Below, one piece after another: positions 30,430 through 44,334 of a DNA stretch of 64,000 nt. The stretch covers positions 697 through 64,696 of the forward strand of contig CACOMW010000003.1 in the NCBI GenBank assembly GCA_902628365.1, read 5' to 3'. This DNA comes from an uncultured Marinoscillum sp. (GTDB taxonomy: Bacteria; Bacteroidota; Bacteroidia; Cytophagales; MED-G16). Position 1 is the stretch's first letter, and each line of letters begins with the position of its first letter. The translations under genes and the position numbers were made by a program. Under the pieces are notes generated by a model. It was not told the DNA's origin. It was given only the letters and a program-made list of their open reading frames with translations, and did not search any database.

Positions 30430-33400
30430 CTATGATAAACCTAAAAATCTATTTAATTTAACCTGAATTAAATACATTGATGGTATAACTAATAAGGTTA
30501 AAAAAGTTGCAAATGACAAACCAAAAATAATTGCCCAAGCAATTGGACCAAAAAAAACCATGTTATCACCCCCAAGGTAGAAACTTATTTCATAAAACTT
30601 AAAGAAATTTACAAAGTCAAAGTTCATGCCAATTGCTAACGGCATTAGCCCTAATATGGTTGTGAGAGCAGTAAGAATTACTGGTCTTAATCTTGTTTTA
30701 CCTGCATCTGATATACATTCAATTATATCTTTTAAATCAAGTTTAGAAGATTTGAGCATTTTTCTTTTTCTATTTAATTCAATAAAATCTATTAATACAA
30801 TTGCATTATTTACTACAATACCAATTAATGAAATTACACCAATCATTGTCATTACCACGACAAAATCCATTTTAAAAAGAAGTAAACCTAAAAACACTCC
30901 AATTGTACTTAATATTATAGAAGACATTATTATTAATGGAGTTATAATTTTATTGAACTGAGCTACTATTATTATAAATACTAAAAATAATGCTATCATA
31001 AAAGCATTTGATAAAAAGGCCATTTCTACTTCTTGTTCTTGTTGTTCACCCCCAAATTTATAAGTATATCCACTTGGAAAAGGAAACTTTTTTAGGGCCA
31101 TATCAATTTTAGAATTTACATTCGTAGGGTTATACCCAGAAGTAACATTTGATGAAATAGTAATAACTTTATCAAGATCTTTTCTCTTTATCGAACTGTA
31201 GGTATTTGACATTTTCATAGATGCAAATGAGCTTATTGGAACTTGATAAATTCTACCATTGGACTGATTTCTAAAAGTTATATTTTTATTTAATAATGCA
31301 TCAACATCATATCTAAACTTATCATCCAATCTTAACTGTATTTTATAATCATCTTCTCCAATTTTATATTTTGATAACTCTTTACCAAATAAAGATGTCC
31401 TTAGCTCGTTAGCTAGCATTCCAGTTGACATACCATATCTTCTAAGTTTATCTCTATCGAAATCAATTAAAATTTCAGGCTTTCTGGTTGAAAGGTCAAA
31501 GACTAATTTTTCAATACCAGGAATATTTGATTCATTAATATATTTTCTCATTTTTTCAACTTGGTCAATCAAAACATTAAAATCTGACCCAGAAACTTCA
31601 ATACTAATCTCTCCTCCAACAGGGGGTCCTTTTCTATCTTTTCCGAATGTTATACTTACCCCAGGATAAGTGTCAACATTAGATCTTAATTTATCAAGCA
31701 CATCGATGGTATTAATTCCATTTCTTTGCTCAAATTCTAAAAAATTGATTTTAATTTTTGCTCTATTAGGCGAATCTCTCATAGAAAGAGCTGATGGATC
31801 ATTTTCATTTAGGGTTCTTTTACCCACAAAAGTCACAACACTTTCTATAATTTCATTATAATCAATTAGTATTTTGTCAACTTCCTTCTCTAACATCTTT
31901 GTAAACAAATTAGTCTCCTCTATATCCGAACCAACTGGAAGCTCAATATATATATTTATATAATTAGGTCTATTTTCAGGGAAAAATAAAACTTTAGGTG
32001 GAAATAATTTAATAAGTTGAAATGTACCAATTAATAGAAATATAGAAAAAATAATAACATAAAAAGGTCTTTTACCACCTAATAAATAATTTAATAAAAT
32101 ACTATATCTATATTCTAATGCTTTTAAATATTTTTCTCTAAAAATTTTAGATAAAGGTATAAACACGTAATAATTAGAAATTATAAAAAATGAAATAAAC
32201 ATTAAAATATTTCCAACCCAATTAATTTTTAAAATTAAGATTGAAAATATTCCCAAAACAAATAAAATTAGTGAGTTTTTAATGTATTTAGATTTATCTT
32301 TTTTACCATTTCCTTCGATTTTCATTAAATAAGAAATTAAAACTGGATTAATTACCAGAGCAACAAACAAAGATGATAACAGAGTAACTATTATACCAAT
32401 AGGAAGAAAACTCATGAACTTTCCAGTTAATCCCGGCCAGAATGCCAAAGGAACAAAAACTGCTAATGTTGTTCCAGTTGAAGTAATAATAGGTAATGCT
32501 ATCTCTCCAATACCTAATTTTGTTGCTTCTATTCTTGTATAGCCTTTTTCTAAAAATCTATAGATATTTTCTGTTACTACAATTCCATTGTCAACTAATA
32601 AACCCAAGGAAATGACTAACGAAAAAAGTATCATCATATTTACAGTAATTCCGAATATTTGAAATACAAGAAAAGAAATACACATTGAAAGAGGTATTGA
32701 TAAACCAACAAATAATGCATTTCTCACACCAAGAAAAAACATTAGAACTAATACTACCAATATTACGCCACTAAAAATACTATTCTCTAAAGTACTTACT
32801 TGTTCTTTAGTATTTCTAGACTGATTGTTTACAATAATAATATCAATGTCTTTTGGAATTTGAGTTTTGAATTTAGAGATAATGGTGTTTACCTTATCAT
32901 TAAGTAATAAAAGGTTTGTTCCTGATCTTTTTGCAACATCAACTGCAACAACTGGTTTACCTCCAAGTCTAAAATAACTTTCAGATTCCTTGTATCCGAA
33001 ATCTACTTTTGCTACATCCTTTAAATATACTATTTTATCATTTTTATTAGATATAATTATATTTCTAAAATCTTCCATAGATTTAAATTCTCCAAATAAT
33101 CTAACTGATCGTCTAATATTATTAGATAATAAATTACCGCCAGAAACGGATACATTCTCATATAAAATAGCATTTTCAATATCAATAAAAGAAAGGTTTC
33201 TTGCTTCCAATTCAAATGGATTGACTTTAATAGAAACTTCTTTATCCTCTACTCCAGCAATAGAAACCTTAGATACATCAGTAATATTTTCAAGTTCATC
33301 CTTTAAGATTTCAGCATAGAATTCTAGCTTTTCTAAGGAATAATTTCCAGAAAGTGTCACACTCATAACAGGAAAATCTGAAAAGCTAACTTCATAGACA

Positions 33401-33822
33401 CTAGATTCTTTTGGTAGATCCGTAGGTAAATTAATTTTTGCCCTATCTACCGCATCATTCACTTTAGATTTTGCATATTCAATATCAATACCTGATCCAA
33501 ATTCTGCAACAATTGTTGAATAACCCTGTATAGAATTAGATCTTATTTCTTTAATTTCAGAAATGGTATTCAATTCCTTTTCTATAGGTCTAGTTATAAG
33601 ATTTTCTATATCTGTCGGTGAATTACCTGGATATGGTGTACCAATATAAACCGAGGACTGTTCTACTTCAGGATAACTTTCTTTAGGTAGGTTATTATAA
33701 GCTCTTGTTCCTAAAATAACAAGCATGATTAATAAAAGAACAACTGTTATTCTATTTTTTAGAGAAAAATTAGATAAACCAAATTGACGAATAACCTTAT
33801 CTCCTTTTTTATACTTGATCAT
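30430..33822 (-). CDS. RND efflux transporter permease (AcrB/AcrD/AcrF family)
   Basis: 1130 aa; LGLLVDNGIVVTENI, GIVVNNAIVL, RLRPVILTALTTILG. Confidence 0.95.
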   Translation of the reverse strand: MIKYKKGDKVIRQFGLSNFSLKNRITVVLLLIMLVILGTRAYNNLPKESYPEVEQSSVYIGTPYPGNSPTDIENLITRPIEKELNTISEIKEIRSNSIQGYSTIVAEFGSGIDIEYAKSKVNDAVDRAKINLPTDLPKESSVYEVSFSDFPVMSVTLSGNYSLEKLEFYAEILKDELENITDVSKVSIAGVEDKEVSIKVNPFELEARNLSFIDIENAILYENVSVSGGNLLSNNIRRSVRLFGEFKSMEDFRNIIISNKNDKIVYLKDVAKVDFGYKESESYFRLGGKPVVAVDVAKRSGTNLLLLNDKVNTIISKFKTQIPKDIDIIIVNNQSRNTKEQVSTLENSIFSGVILVVLVLMFFLGVRNALFVGLSIPLSMCISFLVFQIFGITVNMMILFSLVISLGLLVDNGIVVTENIYRFLEKGYTRIEATKLGIGEIALPIITSTGTTLAVFVPLAFWPGLTGKFMSFLPIGIIVTLLSSLFVALVINPVLISYLMKIEGNGKKDKSKYIKNSLILFVLGIFSILILKINWVGNILMFISFFIISNYYVFIPLSKIFREKYLKALEYRYSILLNYLLGGKRPFYVIIFSIFLLIGTFQLIKLFPPKVLFFPENRPNYINIYIELPVGSDIEETNLFTKMLEKEVDKILIDYNEIIESVVTFVGKRTLNENDPSALSMRDSPNRAKIKINFLEFEQRNGINTIDVLDKLRSNVDTYPGVSITFGKDRKGPPVGGEISIEVSGSDFNVLIDQVEKMRKYINESNIPGIEKLVFDLSTRKPEILIDFDRDKLRRYGMSTGMLANELRTSLFGKELSKYKIGEDDYKIQLRLDDKFRYDVDALLNKNITFRNQSNGRIYQVPISSFASMKMSNTYSSIKRKDLDKVITISSNVTSGYNPTNVNSKIDMALKKFPFPSGYTYKFGGEQQEQEVEMAFLSNAFMIALFLVFIIIVAQFNKIITPLIIMSSIILSTIGVFLGLLLFKMDFVVVMTMIGVISLIGIVVNNAIVLIDFIELNRKRKMLKSSKLDLKDIIECISDAGKTRLRPVILTALTTILGLMPLAIGMNFDFVNFFKFYEISFYLGGDNMVFFGPIAWAIIFGLSFATFLTLLVIPSMYLIQVKLNRFLGLS

Positions 33823-33827
33823 TTAAT

Positions 33828-34946
33828 TTAATTTTTAATCATAACATAAGAACCATCCATAACTTCAGACGAACCCTTATCAATAACAGTTTCATTTCCT
33901 TTCAATCCACTTATAACTTCTGTAGAATAATTGAAAGATCTTCCAATTAAAATTGGTATTTTTTTGGCGATTTTCTTTCCATCAAAATCTTCAACTATAA
34001 AAATATAATTAAGTCTATCATCTGAATAAATAATATTAGATGGAATAGTAATTGCATTATCATTTTTGTAATCAACAAGTTTAACTGTTAAAATTTGATT
34101 AGGTTTTACCGTTTCACTTAATTCTTGTGGTATAGCTACCTCAATAGAAAATGTTCTATTAATTGGATTGATAACTTGACTAATAGATTCAATGAAAGAA
34201 TTTATAATCATATTATTAGAAATAATTTTTACTGAATCTTTTACCTTGAATGAATTATTATATGATTCAGCTATTTCAATATTTATATACGAATAATTAT
34301 CATTAAACATCCTAAAAGAAGGCATAGATGGAGAAGCCATTTCACCTTCTTTTGCTAAAACATCATCAATAATTCCAGAGAAAGGAGCTAATATATTAAA
34401 CTTCGATGCTTGAACTTTGATAGAATTATACCTACTTTTTGTTGATTGAAAATTAGATTTTGCTCTTAAATAATCAATTTCAGAACCAATATTATTCTCC
34501 CACAAATTCTTTTGACGAAGATAAATGGTTTCTAGTAACTTCATATTTGTTTTAATTTCCTCTAAATTATTTTTTATTAAATCAGAGTTGATCGAAGCAA
34601 GAATTTCTCCTTTTTTTACAAGTTGTCCTTCTTTAACATTTATTGTCTTAAATCTACCAACTACTTCAGGTACTAATAAAATATTCTTTTTTGATTGAAC
34701 ATTTCCCCTTAATTCAACTTCATGAATAAAAGATTTATTTATTGGTTTAATTGTAGAAATTAATTCATAATTATTTTGAATAAAACTTGAGTCTAATTCA
34801 ATAATTTCTTTTTCTAACTTATCTATTTGCGAGTTTATTTCAACTAATGAATTTTTAAGTTGATCAACTTTCTTTTTTTTACTCTCTAATGATTGATTTT
34901 CACATGAAAATATTAAAGTAGTAAGTAAAAACAGTATTTTTTTCAT
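33828..34946 (-). CDS. RND periplasmic adaptor (MFP) lipoprotein
   Basis: Lipobox IFSC, coiled coil, VKEGQLVKKGE lipoyl-like motif, APFSG. Confidence 0.92.
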   Translation of the reverse strand: MKKILFLLTTLIFSCENQSLESKKKKVDQLKNSLVEINSQIDKLEKEIIELDSSFIQNNYELISTIKPINKSFIHEVELRGNVQSKKNILLVPEVVGRFKTINVKEGQLVKKGEILASINSDLIKNNLEEIKTNMKLLETIYLRQKNLWENNIGSEIDYLRAKSNFQSTKSRYNSIKVQASKFNILAPFSGIIDDVLAKEGEMASPSMPSFRMFNDNYSYINIEIAESYNNSFKVKDSVKIISNNMIINSFIESISQVINPINRTFSIEVAIPQELSETVKPNQILTVKLVDYKNDNAITIPSNIIYSDDRLNYIFIVEDFDGKKIAKKIPILIGRSFNYSTEVISGLKGNETVIDKGSSEVMDGSYVMIKN

Positions 34947-34957
34947 AATAATTTTAT

Positions 34958-36289
34958 TTAATTAAGTATACCTAAAGTTTTTTCTAAATTAATTTTTGAA
35001 ATAATTGCTTGATAATAAGCATTATAATAATTAGTCTGAGCTGTTTTTAATGCATTATTTGAATCTAAAACTTCTAAATTAGAACCAATCCCCTCTTTGT
35101 ATTTTTTTTCAGATACACTATATACCTCGTTAGCAAGAACTAAATTATCTTTTGAAATATTTAATGACTCAATTGCATTTTTGAGTTCTATGTAATTTTG
35201 ATTTATCTGTAAATCAATTGACCTTTCTAAAAATTTAATTTGATTTTCAACCTGTTGAATGACAATTTTAGATCTATTTATCTTACTTCTTTTATTTAAT
35301 CCATCAAAAATGGGAACAATTACCTGTAAACCAACGGTTCCATACTTTTTCCATCTATTTGAATTAAAAAAAAGATCATATTCAGAGCTTGATGTATTAA
35401 ATCCATAATTAAGATTTGCATAAATTTGAGGTAAAAATTGACTTCTATTATTTTTTAATTCATATGATTTCAAACGCTTATTTGTATTCAAAATAGAATG
35501 TTCAATCCTATCTGAATAATCAAAAGATTGTATATCATAATCATTAACAGATAAAATTACATCTTCAATTGATCCTTTAACTGATAATTTATTATTTACT
35601 GGAAATCCAATCTGAAATTTCAAAACCGATAGACTTAAATCATACAATCTTTCAGCTTTAATTTTTTCAGCATTTAAATTATTGAAAGATACTTTTATCC
35701 TATCAACATCTAATTTTTCAACAAACCCATTTTCATAAAGAATTTTCGTATCATTTAATAAGGATTCAATTCTATCTAAATTAGAATTAACTAAACTGAG
35801 TCTTTCTTTTGTATTAAGAACAACATAATATGCTTTTCTAACAGACTCAATTATATCAACTTTTGCTCTAACAGTTTGCTTTTCCGAAAGTTCTATTAAG
35901 GTTTTTGATGCTGCAAGACCAACAAAATATGAACCATTAAAAATCATTTGGTTTATACCTAAGTCCATTATTCCATCATATTTTTGACCAAAAGAAACTT
36001 CTTGTTCGGTTCCTTCAGGTACCCCAGGCATGAATTTACTTATATCAATTAAACTCTTTTGGATTTCAAAATTATATTTAAGACCAGTTTCAAACTGAAT
36101 TTGAGGAAAACCAACAGATAGATATTCTCTGCTTGTCATTTTAGATACGTTTTCTTCTAAAAAAGAATTTTTCAAGTTTTCATTATTAGATAAAGCCATT
36201 TGTAAACATTCATCTAAACTCAAAGAAGTATCTTGTCCAAATAAAAAACCTGGAAATAGAAAAAAAATAAGGATTGATAAATATTTCAT
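34958..36289 (-). CDS. TolC-family outer membrane efflux protein
   Basis: LSLDECLQMALSNN, PIFDG, YKEGIGSNLEVLD; first gene of the TolC-MFP-RND block. Confidence 0.93.
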   Translation of the reverse strand: MKYLSILIFFLFPGFLFGQDTSLSLDECLQMALSNNENLKNSFLEENVSKMTSREYLSVGFPQIQFETGLKYNFEIQKSLIDISKFMPGVPEGTEQEVSFGQKYDGIMDLGINQMIFNGSYFVGLAASKTLIELSEKQTVRAKVDIIESVRKAYYVVLNTKERLSLVNSNLDRIESLLNDTKILYENGFVEKLDVDRIKVSFNNLNAEKIKAERLYDLSLSVLKFQIGFPVNNKLSVKGSIEDVILSVNDYDIQSFDYSDRIEHSILNTNKRLKSYELKNNRSQFLPQIYANLNYGFNTSSSEYDLFFNSNRWKKYGTVGLQVIVPIFDGLNKRSKINRSKIVIQQVENQIKFLERSIDLQINQNYIELKNAIESLNISKDNLVLANEVYSVSEKKYKEGIGSNLEVLDSNNALKTAQTNYYNAYYQAIISKINLEKTLGILN

Positions 36290-36400: not shown

Positions 36401-39400
36401 CTATCTCTTGATATAAACATACCCTTTTATGATATCCGAACCATCCCCCAAATCTATTATATAATAATATGTTCCTTCTGGTAATTTATTTCCAACTGTA
36501 TTTTTAGGGCTTGCATCAAGTGTTGATAAAAATGGAATATTATTTGAAGAAAAAGAATTAAACATATTTGTTCCATCCCATTCATTATAATACCCTTTTT
36601 TCTCATATACTTTTTCACCCCATCTATTAAATAATTTCACGATATTATTTGGATAAATTTGTAATCGAGCAATTCTCCATGTATCATTGATTCCATCACC
36701 ATTAGGTGAAAATCCTGTAGGCACATGCAATACTTTATCATAAACCTCCAATATAGATTCATCTGTTATAATTGTTTCACCACAAACAAATCCTGAATTA
36801 CGAATTATTAATTTGTATCTATACGTATGCATATACATTTCTAGTGGATAAATTTTCAACTCTGACGTATTAATTCCTTTATAGTTTACTTCATCAATTA
36901 GAGTATCTGATATTGTATTCCAAGTGAGCCCTAAATCCTTACTTTCTTGCCATTCATATGTAAAATCACCACTATTTATTCCTGTGTTTAAAACTAAAGT
37001 ATCAAATTCAACCAAAAAGTTATATAATTCAAATAAAGATAGAATTTCAATTTCGATACCAGGTTCTAAATAATCTTTCGTCCCATTAAAGTTATTGTCT
37101 ACAGGTATTGTATATCCGTCACTTGTTCCTATTACCTTACCTTCATTATCAACTTCCACTGGTGAATTACCCAATATACCATCACCATCTTCATCTGTAA
37201 AACCAGCCTCTATTACATCAGAACAACCGTCACCATCACTGTCTAAATCAAAATAATTAGGTATTCCATCACCATCAAAATCATCAACTCCTTCTTCAGT
37301 ATCTAAAATACCATCATTATCATCATCTAAATCAATTTCATCTGGTATTCCATCTCTTTCATAATCAGGAAGTACAGTTATTGTAAAAGTATCTGACTCT
37401 ATTGTAGAACCACATGGAAAAGACGGGGTAGATACAAATACTCTAAATATTCTTCCGTTATAATCTAAATGGGCATTTTCTACATAGTAACTTGAGGTTT
37501 GACTGGCTAAAAACTCCCAAGTCTTTCCAGTATCTTTACTTACCTGCCACAAATAGCCTGCACTTCCATCCGAAATGGTTTCTATATTTACAATACTGTC
37601 TTTCGATTCAATTACTCTAATATGTTTTGGTTGAGTTATTATACTTATAGAACTACCTTTTTCCTTGTAATCATAAATTAGATTAAAATCTTCATCAACT
37701 GGCTCGGTATATCCATCAACACCACTTATTACCCTACCAATACTATCAACTGTTATCGGTGAATCACCCAGTATACCATCACCGTCTCCATCTGTAAAAC
37801 CAGCCTCTACTACATCAAAACACCCATCATTATCTACATCTAGATCAAAATGATTAGGTATACCATCACCATCATCATCCAACGTAAATTCAAATTCATC
37901 TAAAATCCCATCATTATCATCGTCAACATCAATTCTATCTATCACTCCATCTGAATCATTATCCAGTATTATATCATAAATGGTTATAGAAACTTGATCA
38001 ATATCTTGCAGATAACTTCCATCAATCCACTTCCAGCCACCAGCAGGTTCTGAGTAACTTGAATCTGATGTGTCTTGATACAATCCTATCCAGGCAGGTG
38101 TCGTATTATTTCCAAGTAATTTAGTAGTCATCGTATCAAGTAATTTATTCTCTTGATATGATTTAATAATTGCTAAATTTCCACCTGCTAATTGTGCTGA
38201 AATCTTCGCATCACTCCATGATGATGTGGTCTTAGAAACAAAATAACTGTGTCCTGAGTACTGTCCTAAATAATCGTAATTAGCAAGATCAGTTAATAAA
38301 CTATCATACTCAAGAATATGTTTAGCAGAAAAACCATCTACATCATCTGCCCAAGGACCATTTCGATTAATATACATATAAGCAAAATTTTGTAATACTC
38401 CTGCGTCGTCAGGGTGAGTGTTAGACCAATTTACATAGTTATTTGAATTCACATTAATTACTTCGCTATTATCAACTATTAAATCATTTATTGAGTTGAT
38501 CTTAAAACTACCAGATATCGATCCATTTGGAATTGTAATGGTCATGGAATCTACATTATAATCTACTCCTTCAGTTGCAGAACCTGCTAAATTTATTTTA
38601 ACATTATAATCTTGATCATATACTGCACTTAATCTAGCCGTCACAGTAGCAATCTCATTGTATTCACTAATAGTATCTTTATCAACAAATAGTGATAATG
38701 ATACAGGCGGATTATCATTATCAACAATATTTATCGCTACTTGCTGAGTGCCTAGCTCATCAGCATTAGATACAGATGAAATATCAACAATTACTGTTTC
38801 ATTATTTTCGTCAATCAAATCTTCTATTGCTTTTACATCAACTCTAGTTGTCAATTGTCCAGCAGGGATTATGACAGGAGATAGTAAAGTATAGTCAACC
38901 CCAGCTCCAGTAGCAGTACCTGAAGTTGATAATGATATAGATACATTTTCGGAGACAAATTCATCTAATGTAAAAGTAAGAACAGAAACTCCTCCTGACT
39001 CAGATATAATTGATCTATCTAAACTCATTGAAACTTCAGGAGCTCCAAAAGCTGCATCAGCAATATTTATCATCACAAAACCCTGTGATGATCCAGGTTG
39101 AGCAATAGTTGCCCTGGCATTTGTAACACTAGAAATTCCAACAAGAATATTTTCATTTGTATCGTATATACCATCATCTTTCATTACAACTGATGTAGAT
39201 GAAGAGAGTGATCCAGCAGAAATAGTAATACTATTCGAGCTAAGATCGTAATCACTACCATTAGATGCTAACCCATCAGTTATTAAATTTACTGTAATAT
39301 CTTTAGATATTGGATTATCGATGGATGCAATGACATTAGCACTATTCGATAAAACCGATGAGCTCATCGCAGTACCTATGACTTTTGTTACAAATTTTGA

Positions 39401-42400
39401 TCCTCCTCCTGTATCAGTATTTCCAATAATAATTTTATTTATAGCCATACATTGAATGGTATTTATATTTTGAGTAACATGTACCCAATTAGGCTTAGTG
39501 TTATCCATATATTGCAATACATCTTCTCTTTGACCTGATAATGTTTCTGCTGTTAATACAATTGTTCCATTTTCTAAGATTAATCTCGGATTACCTTCAC
39601 CTTCTAATGGCTCCCAAGTTCCATCTTGATCCAAATCAAACTTACCACCCTGATTGAATTGATCTTGATTTTGCCAATGTAGAATATTAAAATAAAGTAA
39701 TAAATCATTATCAAAATATATTTGAAGCCCCTCATCAAAAGATTCTAATTCTAGAGATAGTCTACAATTATCATAATTAATATTTTGTTGCATGAACTTT
39801 CTGATATTAAGAGTATCTAGTATTTCTCCACCATTAGGCTTATCAACATTTATTCTTTTTACACCTATTGGTATTTTTCTCATAATAACTCCAGCAACTC
39901 CCCCTCCTCCTTGTTGAGGTTCAATTAAAATAGATTTATCAACTGAAAGATTAACTCTTGGCTCATTTTCATTAATTATTGTAATTGTTTCTCTCTGTAC
40001 ACCATCTTCAATACCATTTGCAATTTGATCTATATCTAAAATAACTGTTTCATCTAACTCAACTAAATTATCAGCAATTGCAGTAATTGTAATGGATCCA
40101 GTAGTTTGACCAGAAGGTATAAATATTTGAGTTGAAGACATATTGTAATCAGCACCTCCAACTGCTGCGGTACCTGAAGCAGCTAAAGTGATCGTAACTC
40201 CTAAATTATTTTGATTTGAAGGGTTACTAAGCGTAGCAGTGGCAACAGAAACCCCTCCAGCTTCTGCAATGCTCGTATTATTTACTGATAATGTTACAAG
40301 AGGAGGATCATCATCTCTTATAGTTATTGTTTCTTGTTGTGTCCCTACTTCAACTGCATTAGTTACCTGATCAATGTCTGCAATTATTGTTTCATCAGGT
40401 TCATCTATATTATCATCAACTGAAGTTACAGTGACAACAGCAGACAGTTGACCTGCAGGAATTGTTATTGTAGTTGAGGAAATAGTATAATCCACTCCTC
40501 CTCCAGATGCAGTACCCGAAATAACAAGGTTTACAGTAACATCTCTTGAAGATGCACGATTTATAGTTGCTTTCAATGTTGATACATCAGCATCCTCTCC
40601 CATAACTGCATTTACTAATGACAACTGAACTGTCGGAGTATCATCGTCATCTGTAATGGTTATTGTTTTTTGTTGAGTCCCATTTTCTGTACCATTTGTT
40701 ACCTGGTCAATATCTAAAATGATTGTTTCATCTATTTCGTCAATATTATCTTGAACTGCAGTGACTGTAGTCACTACATTAATTTGTCCAGCGGGTATCG
40801 TAAAAGTATTAGAAGGAATAGAATAATCTGCTCCCCCACCTGTAGCAGTACCAGAGGCAGCTAAAGTTATTGTAACTGGTAATGATGATACTGAACTTAA
40901 AATCAATGTTGTAGAAGTTGCACCACCGTTTTCTTCAATTGTTGCAGTATTGCTTCCGAAACTTACAGTTGGAGGATCATCGTTGTCCAAGATGGTTACC
41001 GTCTTTTGTTGTGTTCCGGCCTCAACTGCATTATTAACTTGATCTATATCTATGATTACCGTTTCATCAGGTTCATCAATAAGATCCTCTACTGCAGTAA
41101 CTGTTGTAGTTCCTGTAGTTTGTCCTGCTGCAATCGTAATCGTGTTTGATGCTAAAGTATAGTCCGCACCTCCTCCAGTAGCCGTTCCACTAGCAGCCAA
41201 AGTAACTGTTACATCTGCGTTATGAACCGCTGAAAGTGTTGTTGTAACAGTAGAAACTGCACCATTTTCACCAATAGAAGCTGCACTTACAGAAAGCGTT
41301 ACCGTTGGCACTTCAACAATTGTTAAAGTAATATCTTCAGTGGTTGCCAGGCGATTTACTGTTCCCCATCCACCTAATCCCTCATTAAATGCAGGCCATA
41401 CATTTGGATTACTATAATTATTATTACCCCAGGGCTTTCCACCACTGTTCTCTGTAAAATGCGGAAATTCGTTAACCTTATCTTGGTAATGACCAATCCA
41501 TCTGTTGTTTATTTTAGATTCTATCCAAGTGTATTCTTCTATAGTTGTAACTTCTGCTAAATAGCCCCCTTTTGATATTGCATAATCTCTCGCATCTGTC
41601 CAATTTTTTGTATCACTACAATCAAAATAGCTATGCCCTTGATATACACCTAAATGAGTATAACAAGATCCAGCAATATTAGTAATATTTGGATTATCTA
41701 GTTCCATAACGTGTCCCCTTTTTATGTTGTTTCTAAGGGGAAGATCATTCCAATAGATATCACCTCGTATTTCAACAACATCTTCACCTCCTGAATTATT
41801 TGGTTCACCAGAAGGCCAACTATGAAAAGGAACAGCCCTAATTATTACTGTTTCGTTATCATCATTAGCATTATCAGCAACTCCAGTAATGGTAAAAGAT
41901 CCAGTGCTACTTCCTTGAGGTATGGTTATTGTCATCCCCGTTTCACCATTTCCAGTTTTAATACTTGAATTTGATCCAGCAGCAAAAGAATAATCGGTTC
42001 CAAGGGTTGAACTTGCTGTACCACTAGCATATATGGTAAGTGCAATATCTTGTTTTGCTGGATTTGCAACTGTAGCAGTTACAGTTACCACTCCACCAGC
42101 TTCAGCAACCGTTGGAGAGCTAAGAGTTAAGGTTACCTTCTGAGAATCATCATCTGTGATAGTAATAGTTTTCTGCTGCGTTCCATTTTCAGCTGCGTTC
42201 ACTACATAATCGATATCTAATATTACAGTTTCACTTCCTTCTCCAATAATATCCTGAACTGAAGTAACCGTTGTCGTTCCAGTAGTTTGTCCTGCAGGTA
42301 TTGTAATGCTAGTAGAAGCCAAATTGTAATCCACACCCCCTCCTGTTGCCGTACCTGAAGTGGCAAGACCAACTGTGACGTTATTAGCAAGCGTTGAGCT

Positions 42401-43738
42401 TAAAGTTGCTGTTACAGTAGAAACCACACCATTTTCACCAATTGAAACTGGATTTACTGAAAGTGTTACAGTAGGAAGAGCAATTCCCCAAACTTGGACG
42501 CTTCCTTTTCCTCCATTCCACTGAAAATTTCCAATTGCTACTCTATTTCCTAAATCATTAAGTTGAACAGAATTTCCAAATTTGGCACCGCTTACTGCGT
42601 CTTCAATATCAGAAACGAAAAGAACCCAAGCAGTACCATTCCATTGAAATACCCTTACTTCACCTTTTGCTGCATTTGCTTCTGGAGCTCCTATTGCAAG
42701 TTTTGTTCCATCAGCATTTAATGAAACTGAATAGCCACTTTCATCTCCTGCCGCCTGACCATCAATATCTGCCCCCATTTGAGCCCAAGCATTTCCATTC
42801 CATTTAAATACTCTTGTGTGTCCTTTATCATTATCATGAGCTTTGGCTCCAACAGCCAACGTGTTTCCATCTTTACTTAGTGAAACTGAATACCCAAAAC
42901 CATCATTTGCAGCAACCCCATCAAGATCAGATCCCATTTGGTCCCATGAATTCCCATTAAGTTTGTATACCCTTACATGACCTTTTGCTCCGTCATGTCC
43001 CGTAGCTCCAACAGCTAGAATAGTTCCATCTCCATTTAAATCTATAGCAGATCCAAAAATATCACCATTTGCAATCCCAACAATATCTGCACCGAGTTGA
43101 GGCCAATTATTTCCATCTTTTTTGTATACTCTTACTAATCCTTTTTTATTATTTGAACTACCAGTATTACTATTATCGCCAATTGCTCCACTCGCTACTA
43201 CTGTTCCATCGTCATTAATTGCGACACTATAACCAAATTTATCTCTAGTTCCTGTACCACTAATTGATTTTTGTAAAGAAAAAGCAGATGGATTCCAAAT
43301 TTGATGAAAAGTACCTACTTTATAAATGTAAATGTATCCTGTCTTAGGGTTTGATACCCAAGAGCCTCCAATAAATGTTTGTCCGTCATTACTGATTGCA
43401 GCTGCTCTACCAAAATTTTCAGAATTATTACCAGCTCCTACCATCCCTCCTCCTGGATTTGGTTTTTTAGCCCAATCATTACCATCCCATTCTTTTATTG
43501 TCAACGACCCACAACCAGAAACACAATTAGATCGAGTAGAATAAGGCGCGCTAAAAAATACTATATTACCATCACCACTAATTCCTGTTTGCCATCCAGC
43601 TTGCCAATTTGCTCCACCCCCATTGATACTAGATCCAAGTCTTGCCCAAGTTTGAGCTTGAGAAAAAGAATGATATGATGATAAAAAACTAATTATCATC
43701 GTAATTAAAAAACTATATATTTTAAATATTGAATTCAA
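36401..43738 (-). CDS. Giant T9SS type-B adhesin: FG-GAP-like beta-propeller, 9 Calx-beta-like repeats, 2 permuted C-type lectin domains, TSP3-like Asp-rich repeats, gliding-motility CTD
   Basis: Signal peptide; W.Q.G.DI.G...GD.FG.SV.L..DG..LAVGA repeats; GTA.GG.DY/ETV/TITI.DDD repeats; DxDxDGxxD; [31 protein letters not shown]. Confidence 0.9.
37080..37950 (-). repeat. Intragenic duplication of the Asp-rich TSP3-like unit
   Basis: [41 protein letters not shown] occurs twice, about 600 nt apart, with visible DNA identity (ccatcacc.tct.catctgtaaaaccagcctcta.tacatca). Confidence 0.8.
37975..42480 (-). repeat. Nine tandem ~110-aa Calx-beta-like repeats in the adhesin
   Basis: Recurrent PTV.LSV....I.E.GG.S.VTATLS...SGTA.GGG.DY...TI.IPAGQ...V.D.I.E.DETVI.DI...GTQQ.TITI.DDD. 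Confidence 0.85.
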
Positions 43739-44334
43739 CTTTTTAGTTTTATATATTCTTCAAGACCTTTTTCAGTTAAAATCCCTCTCATAAAATGATC
43801 AAAAAACTCTAACTGAACTTTTCTAAAATCATAATTTTGATAAGGAAATAAATCTTGATCGAAGGCAATTTCCATTTCTTCAATTCTAAGCTTTGAAAGA
43901 ATAATTTCATTTACTTCTTCTCTGATAAAACCCTCTTTTTTTCCTCTTTGAATATTCTCAGCTATACCTTTAAGAAATATCTTGTTTTTGTACTCTTTTA
44001 TTATATTATCTAATGTAGGATAATACTTTTTTACATCTTTAACATATAAAGGGTTAATATCATTAATTGTAGATCTAAAAAATTTAGAAAGTTTAATTGA
44101 AAATTCTATTGAATTCTTGCAGGTATTCTTTAGCCTACTAATCTCAGTAATGATACCAGAAAAATAAAAGTTTATGGATTCAGTTGCAATACTCTCTTTG
44201 TCTTGAAAATATTTATAAATAGTTTTTTTAGACATACCAAGTTCATTAGAAATATTATCCATGGTAACGCCTCTCAGACCATATGTTCTAAAAAGATTAT
44301 CAGATTTATTTATTATTTTCTGTTTTACAGTCAT
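43735..44334 (-). CDS. TetR/AcrR family transcriptional regulator
   Basis: [37 protein letters not shown]; C-terminal RGILTEKG. Confidence 0.94.

Follow-up and report, generated by a model that had tools for sequence, protein, structure and literature searches.

A putative circular permutant of the C-type lectin-like domain nested in a Calx-beta repeat of a giant Bacteroidota adhesin

The 64,000-nucleotide stretch of DNA analyzed here (hereafter, the window), which belongs to contig CACOMW010000003.1 of an uncultured Marinoscillum sp., encodes a predicted adhesin in which the hallmark motifs of a C-type lectin-like domain (CTLD) occur in an inverted order and in the middle of a Calx-beta repeat. 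The question raised by this locus is whether both pieces make up one lectin domain, with its chain started at a different point and inserted in a foreign loop, or whether they are fragments of something else. A first-pass annotation of the sequence had put forward the former reading. The account favored here, to which we assign a probability of about 0.75, is that a natural circular permutant of the CTLD is encoded here, nested in Calx-beta, likely to bind glycans and derived from a tandem array as an insertion cassette; permutation and nesting, taken by themselves, we regard as very probable.

Reversed order of the two lectin halves

The motifs quoted in the first-pass annotation are all found in the translation, in the order reported, on the minus strand and within a single 2445-aa open reading frame (ORF): ETVII (aa 629-633), the EPN-bearing stretch (aa 638-648, nt 41827-41795), YWND (aa 662-665), YQGHSYF (aa 699-705), NWTDARDY (aa 712-719), WIGHYQD (aa 747-753), GGWGTV (aa 789-794) and DITLTI (aa 802-807). 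The canonical chain order of a CTLD, b1-a1-a2-b2-b3-b4-b5, is replaced in the module considered here (copy 1) by b3-b4-b5-b0-b1-a1-a2-b2. In the arrangement that we propose, the chain would start with the Y/F-x-x-W strand running into the EPN loop and would continue through b3, b4 (bearing WND) and the old last strand, b5, after which a short new linker would lead to the old N-terminal hairpin (b0 and b1, the latter with GHSYF), helices a1 and a2, the WIG strand and the GGW-x-W strand that would end the module.

The evidence for this swap comes primarily from solved CTLD chains. In a phmmer comparison of aa 636-800 with all PDB chains, C-type lectin domains were the sole matches, and DC-SIGNR was matched by two stretches in reversed order (query 5-30, or aa 640-665, on chain positions 94-118; query 57-111, or aa 692-746, on positions 11-64), with a whole-sequence E of 3.7e-5 and weak values for the single stretches (i-Evalues of 0.028 and 4.4). 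A profile built on 12 modules matched DC-SIGN at E ~1e-15, also in two stretches (profile 63-137 on residues 14-84), and the C-terminal end of mannose-binding protein (positions 5-45 on 1hup 97-138, E 8e-10). When 116 permuted units, assembled as described below, were aligned by hhalign with 34 canonical units cut from bacterial tandem CTLD arrays, query 66-145 fell on template 10-80 (probability 99.2, E 2e-19) and query 5-56 on template 76-125 (probability 98.4, E 5e-15), both matches jointly spanning positions 10-125 of the 128 in the template. The reversed order of the halves is far beyond chance, as the same solved chains are matched back to front, and both halves of copy 1 appear, from these alignments, to be homologous to solved CTLDs. 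The initial proposal of swapped halves is thereby upheld, even if the check suggested for it, two partial Lectin_C matches in reversed model order, gave only one of the two: Pfam places the N-terminal half of copy 1 on model positions 2-63 of 107 (18.4-18.6 bits for copy 1 alone) and misses the C-terminal half. The isolated C-halves of copy 1 and of a second module in the same protein (copy 2), 63 and 62 aa long, had no Pfam match even at E 10, and the phmmer and hmmsearch comparisons with PDB chains and the hhalign alignment were used instead.

The site at which the chain was opened can be located by aligning the module with canonical arrays, and lies after the GGW-x-W-(V/I)-x-G strand and ahead of the Y-x-N-W strand, which runs into EPN. 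The new termini fall, as had been suggested, at the start of the long-loop region. In canonical CTLDs, those two strands form a hairpin at the entrance of that region. Because the first and last strands of the module share this one hairpin in the canonical fold, its ends should lie side by side in three dimensions, and its insertion into a loop of some other domain would therefore be feasible.

Predicted fold and nesting in a Calx-beta repeat

AlphaFold2 models of aa 535-815 reached a mean predicted local distance difference test (pLDDT) score of 66 with 14 alignment rows, and of 74.6 with 31 rows (predicted template modelling score 0.69). In the 31-row model, the means of ten-residue blocks are 74-96 in the module core and 84-96 in its N-terminal two thirds, and the elements follow the order b3 b4 b5 b0 b1 a1 a2 b2 with Calx-beta strands on both sides. 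The predicted strands b3 (EDVVEI, aa 652-657), b4 (WND, aa 663-667) and b5 (GHVMEL, aa 674-680) are followed by a coil of ~12 residues, b0 (aa 693-699), b1 (aa 702-711), two helices (aa 713-722 and 733-740) and b2 (RWIGHY, aa 746-751). When the two halves were folded as separate chains (aa 691-800 and aa 636-687), the median ipSAE (an interface score derived from predicted aligned errors) of three runs was 0.77, the best of three controls being 0.00; 58 of 80 solved complexes attain that mark, as do 2 of 110 mismatched pairs. At least 52% of the contacts agree in these runs, with a partner pLDDT of 43 or more, and the lowest-error contacts join GHVME (aa 675-679) with SYFDC (aa 703-707), YLA (aa 726-728) and WI (aa 747-748). 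These contacts we take to be the b5-b1 pairing and hydrophobic core that define a CTLD.

The same succession of motifs would also be left by the decay of a tandem array, in which case the end of one domain and the beginning of the following one would persist as two pieces that do not fold together. True tandem-array junctions, including those of mannose receptor 2, do indeed yield the same C-half-then-N-half alignment, and the C-half escapes Pfam. Against this, the halves and the length of their junction are conserved in the 116 units, which come from 109 proteins: the distance from WND to GHSY has a median of 33 and an interquartile range of 33-34 (113 of the 116 units), the distance from EPN to WND a median of 20 (113 units) and that from GHSY to WIG a median of 47 (114 units). 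Moreover, the units occur singly within host domains that are intact and have to bring their two flanks together again, and both the pLDDT of the module core and the two-chain result argue for halves that pack on each other. Decayed remnants are, in our judgment, very improbable, and the first-pass view of one folded domain instead of two stumps is the one that the model, the two-chain test, the fixed spacing and the conservation of the units all favor.

A further arrangement to consider is domain swapping between molecules or between copies, with the C-half of one unit completing the N-half of another and thus cross-linking adhesins. Permuted or split arrangements can favor swapping, and there are two units in the adhesin and at least three in the genome; furthermore, a passage of PMC3779223 lists CTLD-like folds with segment swapping, such as collagen IV NC1. 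Most hosts, however, carry a single unit, the junction has a short and constant length, and in the monomer model the unit folds onto itself, all of which makes swapping extremely improbable.

The first-pass annotation had placed the graft between the ETVII and DITLTI strands of Calx-beta repeat 2, and this placement is sustained by the model, in which the last host strand is formed after the module (Table 1), by Foldseek, which aligns the sandwich of repeat 2 to CALX CBD1 (96-104 columns, root-mean-square deviation 3.1-3.5, target template modelling score 0.51-0.54, probability 1.00), and by the flanks, which align to the intact neighboring repeat 3. By sequence and predicted fold, the host repeat can be considered a Calx-beta domain whose last strand follows the insertion, and copy 1 would be seated in its F-G loop. 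Nesting is also apparent in global alignments of interrupted repeats with intact ones, made with penalized end gaps; in three of the four, a brief spurious match interrupts the long gap. With each interrupted unit compared with an intact repeat of the same protein, the module appears as a long gap, and identical flank residues amount to 46 of 108 for the Calx-beta repeat with copy 1, to 47 of 56 for an FG-GAP blade and to 35 of 76 for a HYR domain; the Calx-beta repeat with copy 2 differs from an intact repeat by a single 148-aa gap.

Copy 1 matches the profile of permuted modules over positions 4-151 of 153 (E 4.8e-54). In its last part, copy 1 and its close orthologues have an expansion of ~25-40 aa at the place in which the module family reads EPxGGWKW. 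This expansion holds two GG-x-x-W-like motifs, and which of them closes the domain is ambiguous. The only cysteines of copy 1, C692 (nt 41663-41665) and C707 (nt 41618-41620), lie near the b0/b1 hairpin, one on each arm, and C692 aligns with the first Cys of DC-SIGNR. Animal CTLDs of the long form carry an additional disulfide in this hairpin, and a lineage-specific C692-C707 disulfide is possible in copy 1.

Table 1. Positions in the window of the adhesin gene, its sorting domain, the two permuted modules and the parts of copy 1 and its host repeat
Feature	Position	Strand	Details
Adhesin gene	36401..43738	-	ORF, 2445 aa, TTG start
T9SS type B sorting domain	36410..36727	-	aa 2338-2443; PF13585 CHU_C 89.7 bits; TIGR04131 (NCBIfam) 51.8 bits, cut-off 35
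Permuted CTLD module, copy 2	37994..38446	-	aa 1765-1915; F-G loop of last Calx-beta repeat
Calx-beta repeat 2, last strand G	41309..41338	-	aa 801-810; AlphaFold2 strand aa 803-808, block pLDDT ~79
Permuted CTLD module, copy 1	41339..41833	-	aa 636-800; PDB alignments, AlphaFold2, hhalign, two-chain folding
Expanded loop and closing GGW strand	41339..41479	-	aa 754-800; lineage-specific; alignment ambiguous
CTLD N-terminal two thirds, placed second	41480..41662	-	aa 693-753; b0 YTHLGVY, b1, a1, a2, b2 RWIGHY; Lectin_C model 2-63
New junction joining old CTLD C- and N-termini	41663..41695	-	aa 682-692; AlphaFold2 coil between b5 and b0
CTLD C-terminal third, placed first	41696..41833	-	aa 636-681; W-x-x-GEPNN, b3 EDVVEI, b4 WND, b5 GHVMEL
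WND tripeptide	41744..41752	-	aa 663-665; sequence, aligned to DC-SIGNR WND
EPN tripeptide	41798..41806	-	aa 645-647; sequence
Calx-beta repeat 2, strands A to F	41834..42142	-	aa 533-635, ends ETVIIRAV; AlphaFold2 strands at model residues 2-103

A family of permuted modules and its hosts

The permuted CTLD is a sizeable family, not a one-off. A search of 1.84 billion representative sequences with copy 1 returned 940 proteins at E up to 1e-3, the best 150 of which were mostly tandem arrays of canonical CTLDs with junctions that mimic the C-then-N order. Half-profiles of our own making, applied to 151 proteins from this search, identified the N-then-C adjacency in 109 and an isolated C-then-N unit in 18. 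A profile of the isolated unit, searched in proteins of 439-2000 aa, gave 268 matches at E up to 1e-10, and among the 120 matches listed, 95 of 108 new proteins harbored an isolated permuted unit, which was a single one ('CN') in the large majority of them. Classification with the half-profiles led to the extraction of 123 units, of which 99 have the EPN/E/WND set intact and 92 lack cysteine altogether. Units with at most one Cys (116 of the 123, from 109 proteins) were retained for hhalign, for the spacing and for the tally of hosts, a filter that also dropped copy 1 and its near-identical orthologues, which have two.

Within the source genome there are three permuted modules, namely copies 1 and 2 and one on another contig (C33:5572-7466, ORF 727-1893 on the minus strand, with a frame that runs off the contig end). 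The host of the third module is a second adhesin, with Calx-beta, a cadherin-like part and a C-terminal sorting tail unlike that of the window adhesin, and the module occupies a Calx-beta loop (GGWKWVNSNSGTAIGGGTDYTL) other than the one used in the latter. Of 24 other genomes from the same taxonomic family, one of small genomes, 22 have full-length matches to the module, often several and up to 9 per genome, encoded by open frames that range from about 700 to 8,567 aa. The same comparison with 16 genomes that represent 16 other families of the order gave no module at E up to 1e-10. The source names of other carriers include Chitinophagaceae, Sediminibacterium, Flavobacteriaceae and Flavobacteriales. 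In a scan for related loci with a single protein as query, which found 13 loci, both halves were covered only in the closest ones, labelled as Marinoscillum sp. metagenome-assembled genomes (MAGs), and in one Crocinitomicaceae MAG; the Planctomycetota and Rhodobacteraceae loci of that scan had the N-half only.

The permuted module is always located between two halves of another beta-rich domain. According to a tally made with crude regular expressions, the hosts of the 116 units are the N-terminal sandwich of SASA proteins (62), HYR (18), Calx-beta (7) and FG-GAP blades (2), with 27 unclassified hosts among which further Calx-beta and HYR cases, Ig-like repeats and SprB/CHU-type repeats can be recognized by eye. 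The 62 SASA hosts measure ~1100 aa and contain a SASA esterase domain, and some sources name them 'tail fiber domain-containing'. This name is also the annotation of a large set of ~1100-aa Flavobacteriaceae proteins (P0187-P0259) with Pfam matches to the SASA esterase, Peptidase_S74 and the YadA head; each of them carries one permuted CTLD near the N-terminus, and many have no Lectin_C annotation on record. Insertion sites also vary within Calx-beta, as judged by eye: the F-G loop in the window adhesin, a position before strand F in P0044 and P0182, one after the second long strand in P0160, P0161 and P0223, and one after a D-Y motif in P0021. The restriction to one protein, or to Calx-beta, that the first-pass annotation implied must accordingly be dropped. 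It seems fairly likely that we are dealing with a disulfide-free lectin cassette, the ends of which form one hairpin and which has been grafted repeatedly into the loops of at least six kinds of beta-rich hosts, being mostly missed by annotation; these hosts would be Calx-beta (at least three loops), HYR, the FG-GAP propeller blade, Ig-like domains, SprB/CHU-type repeats and the N-terminal sandwich of the SASA-esterase 'tail fiber' proteins of marine Bacteroidota.

Calcium site, function and relation to known systems

In canonical CTLDs of this class, the primary Ca2+, to which sugar hydroxyls are coordinated, is bound by five side chains, namely E and N in EPN, an E further along the chain, and N and D in WND; EPN marks the class that binds mannose, GlcNAc, fucose or glucose. 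When aligned with DC-SIGNR, copy 1 keeps all five ligands (E645, N647, E652, N664 and D665), in agreement with the mannose/GlcNAc-type site that had been read into its sequence at the outset. The Q-D that follows WIG and the E in the E-P motif are also invariant, or nearly so, across the module family, and may represent a candidate second Ca2+ site. As part of a T9SS adhesin composed of Ca2+-binding Calx-beta and aspartate-rich repeats, copy 1 is predicted to be probably capable of Ca2+-dependent glycan binding and, through it, of attachment to particles, algae or other cells; it would form a lectin head on the side of the Calx-beta stalk, aiding attachment to polysaccharide-bearing particles or cells.

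Copy 2 stands apart in this respect. It shares 30% identity with copy 1, flanks included (E 7e-25), matches the module profile over positions 3-148 of 153 (E 2.2e-51) and scores 29.9-31.4 bits with Lectin_C when taken alone, over the cut-off of 22.6 and again on model positions 2-63 of 107 only. Its N-half matches PDB CTLDs, and its C-half, missed by single-sequence searches with the halves, was recovered with half-profiles in the identical fragment P0156; a look-up in the ESM Atlas assigned copy 2 to Lectin_C clusters with a score of 0.96, a result that says nothing on the order of the halves. At the positions of the Ca2+ site, copy 2 reads HPD, Q and WAD, and the five ligands of the primary site are lost. 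Judging from these residues, canonical sugar binding should not be expected of copy 2, which is conserved in related genomes and probably has another ligand or a structural role.

Copy 2 also bears on how copy 1 is to be understood, since a folded permuted CTLD might not be a Ca2+-dependent lectin at all, and could bind a protein or another ligand or simply act as a structural knob on the stalk. The HPD/Q/WAD combination of copy 2 and its relatives (4 of the 123 units) is conserved in related genomes, so that the family can persist without the site, and the EPN region of copy 1 makes no confident contacts in the two-chain test. On the other hand, the full EPN/E/WND set of most extracted units, the EPNNSGGED...WND spacing of copy 1, identical to that of DC-SIGNR residue for residue, and the (near-)invariant Q-D and E-P after the WIG strand amount to a conservation of ligands that is hard to explain if the site is unused. 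A non-lectin role for copy 1 is, on balance, unlikely.

Several observations weigh against the account of copy 1 as a permuted, folded and glycan-binding CTLD. Taken alone, copy 1 remains under the Lectin_C cut-off (18.4-18.6 versus 22.6 bits). The loop at aa 756-797 (model residues 222-263) has a pLDDT below 50, and its alignment to the family is ambiguous, the GGWKW of the family being aligned to GGW at aa 789-791 in one alignment and to GGKPW at aa 766-770 in another. In the two-chain test, both chains have a low pLDDT (43-58), and no confident contacts are made by the initial 32 residues of the C-half, among which are EPN and WND; the pass itself may stem from likeness to solved CTLDs, which is the very point in question. 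A Foldseek search of PDB with both whole models gave no CTLD among the 50 matches listed, only Calx-beta-like or other beta-sandwich chains. This can be explained because the search depends on sequence order, the query has two domains and the module is permuted. Of the intact CTLD in a Calx-beta sandwich that the first-pass annotation expected structure prediction to show, the order of elements was obtained. The predicted CTLD fold of copy 1, with no independent structural match, draws on the order of its elements and the contacts between its halves. At least three of the 123 extracted units (P0020, P0038 and P0162) are false, being the ends of canonical arrays, as told by eye from their cysteines and their flanking W-x-W and EPN motifs; they are not among the 116 units retained. 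Finally, sugar binding is absent from many CTLDs, and copy 2 does not have the site, so that the lectin function of copy 1 should be taken as a prediction from its residues.

The protein that carries both modules has a hydrophobic, signal-peptide-like N-terminus, read from the ORF, followed by FG-GAP repeats, eight Calx-beta stretches, the two permuted CTLD modules, D-rich repeats and a type B C-terminal domain of the type IX secretion system (T9SS). Pfam assigns to it Calx-beta (PF03160, 169.5 bits, 8 stretches), FG-GAP_2 (56.1 bits, 4 stretches) and Lectin_C (PF00059, 33.9 bits in 2 stretches for the whole protein, with a curated cut-off of 22.6). The C-terminal sorting domain identifies it as a putative T9SS type B cargo and, because of this domain and of its Pfam content, the 2445-aa product can be predicted to be a giant secreted or cell-surface adhesin of a Bacteroidota bacterium. 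Between Calx-beta repeats, a stretch without a Pfam match (~39480-40220 on the minus strand, aa ~1175-1420) may be another inserted or unknown domain. Aspartate-rich runs of D-x-D-x-D-G repeats, which we take to resemble thrombospondin-type-3-like Ca2+-binding repeats, are found on the minus strand at ~37730-37970 (aa ~1925-2000) and ~37040-37230 (aa ~2170-2235), each of them followed by a module of ~170 aa without a Pfam match.

The source assembly comprises 1.28 Mb in 59 contigs and is 61% complete, and the G+C content across the window is ~23-38%. A TetR-family regulator gene (43735-44334, minus strand) overlaps the start of the adhesin gene by 4 nt, and a resistance-nodulation-division efflux set (OEP, HlyD-like and AcrB; 30430-36289, minus strand) lies directly downstream on the same strand, so that the adhesin gene splits the regulator from the efflux operon, a pair that would usually be neighbors. 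G+C is also higher in the adhesin gene (0.31-0.38) than around it (0.24-0.30). Composition and position could reflect an insertion of the gene, or the former only a Gly/Thr/Ala-rich product.

As to its novelty, we found no description of a permuted CTLD in the open full-text literature, a provisional result in that subscription journals, InterPro, CATH, SCOP and ECOD were outside the scope of the search. Pfam holds no model of the permuted form and NCBIfam none of the module, and no single permuted CTLD domain appears among the 60 PDB sequences listed in a search with the module profile. The suggestion that this architecture had gone undescribed stands, on the same provisional terms, for what we would define as a natural circular permutant of a known fold, used as a loop-insertion cassette. 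Many of the carriers found with the isolated-unit profile have no Lectin_C match on record, and since Pfam catches at most half the module, the lectin content of marine Bacteroidota surface proteins is undercounted. Few recognition folds have been studied as much as the CTLD, and a conserved permutant tests what this fold needs, as it would retain the Ca2+/sugar-site residues although the canonical disulfides are absent and its chain starts elsewhere. It may also illustrate a general bacterial route to present a lectin head, nested in a hairpin so that a rigid stalk is left unbroken, with the same cassette reused in many unrelated hosts, and it provides a concrete handle on glycan recognition by streamlined bacteria associated with particles or algae.

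The nearest canonical-order relatives of the module are found in its best-scoring relatives, cysteine-poor bacterial tandem arrays such as P0163 and P0170, with which it shares the signature GH-x-Y, WIGG/L-x-QD, P-x-Y-x-EP-GGW-x-W, Y-T-N-W-x-x-GEPNN, WND and h-h-E-h-D. In these arrays, the N-half precedes the C-half and domains follow each other head to tail, un-nested, whereas the module is permuted and nested. In the textbook view, a circular permutant arises when a domain is duplicated and the outer halves are then lost. The module profile aligns colinearly across the junctions of tandem arrays and it seems plausible, from these alignments, that the module, which belongs to a cysteine-poor bacterial CTLD subfamily also known as tandem arrays, arose by excision of a C-half and the following N-half from such an array; it would then have spread as an insertion cassette. 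The array origin proposed in the first-pass annotation thus gains arrays with the right signature and colinear junctions, and falls short of proof. Arrays of 7-11 cysteine-poor canonical CTLDs also occur in P0152, P0004 and P0154 with a PEP-CTERM-like tail (VPEP..., a hydrophobic stretch and RRRR), which places the same lectin subfamily on a different sorting system.

Both halves of the module align to the animal carbohydrate-recognition domains of EPN type (DC-SIGN, DC-SIGNR and mannose-binding protein; PF00059), and the likeness to DC-SIGNR extends to an equal EPNNSGxED...WND spacing, the WIG core motif, two helices and the predicted b5-b1 pairing. The module differs from these domains in being circularly permuted, in lacking canonical disulfides and in being nested in the loop of another domain, theirs being located at the chain end or on a neck. 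Canonical CTLDs have two conserved disulfides, C1-C4 and C2-C3, which appear to be absent from the module; copy 1, for instance, has V654 where DC-SIGNR has the Cys of EDC. Natural circular permutation of a sugar-binding module is itself known from concanavalin A as compared with other legume lectins, and families of Ca2+-dependent carbohydrate-binding modules are reportedly linked by permutation, in work attributed to Montanier et al. 2010. The principle is the same in all these cases, with fold and site kept and the chain start moved, but their folds are unlike the CTLD. In a similar way, the host repeat resembles, in sequence and predicted fold, CBD1 and CBD2 of the Na+/Ca2+ exchanger and the Calx-beta repeats of bacterial adhesins (PF03160), from which repeat 2 of the adhesin differs in holding a foreign domain of 165 aa in its F-G loop, with relatives of the module making use of other Calx-beta loops.

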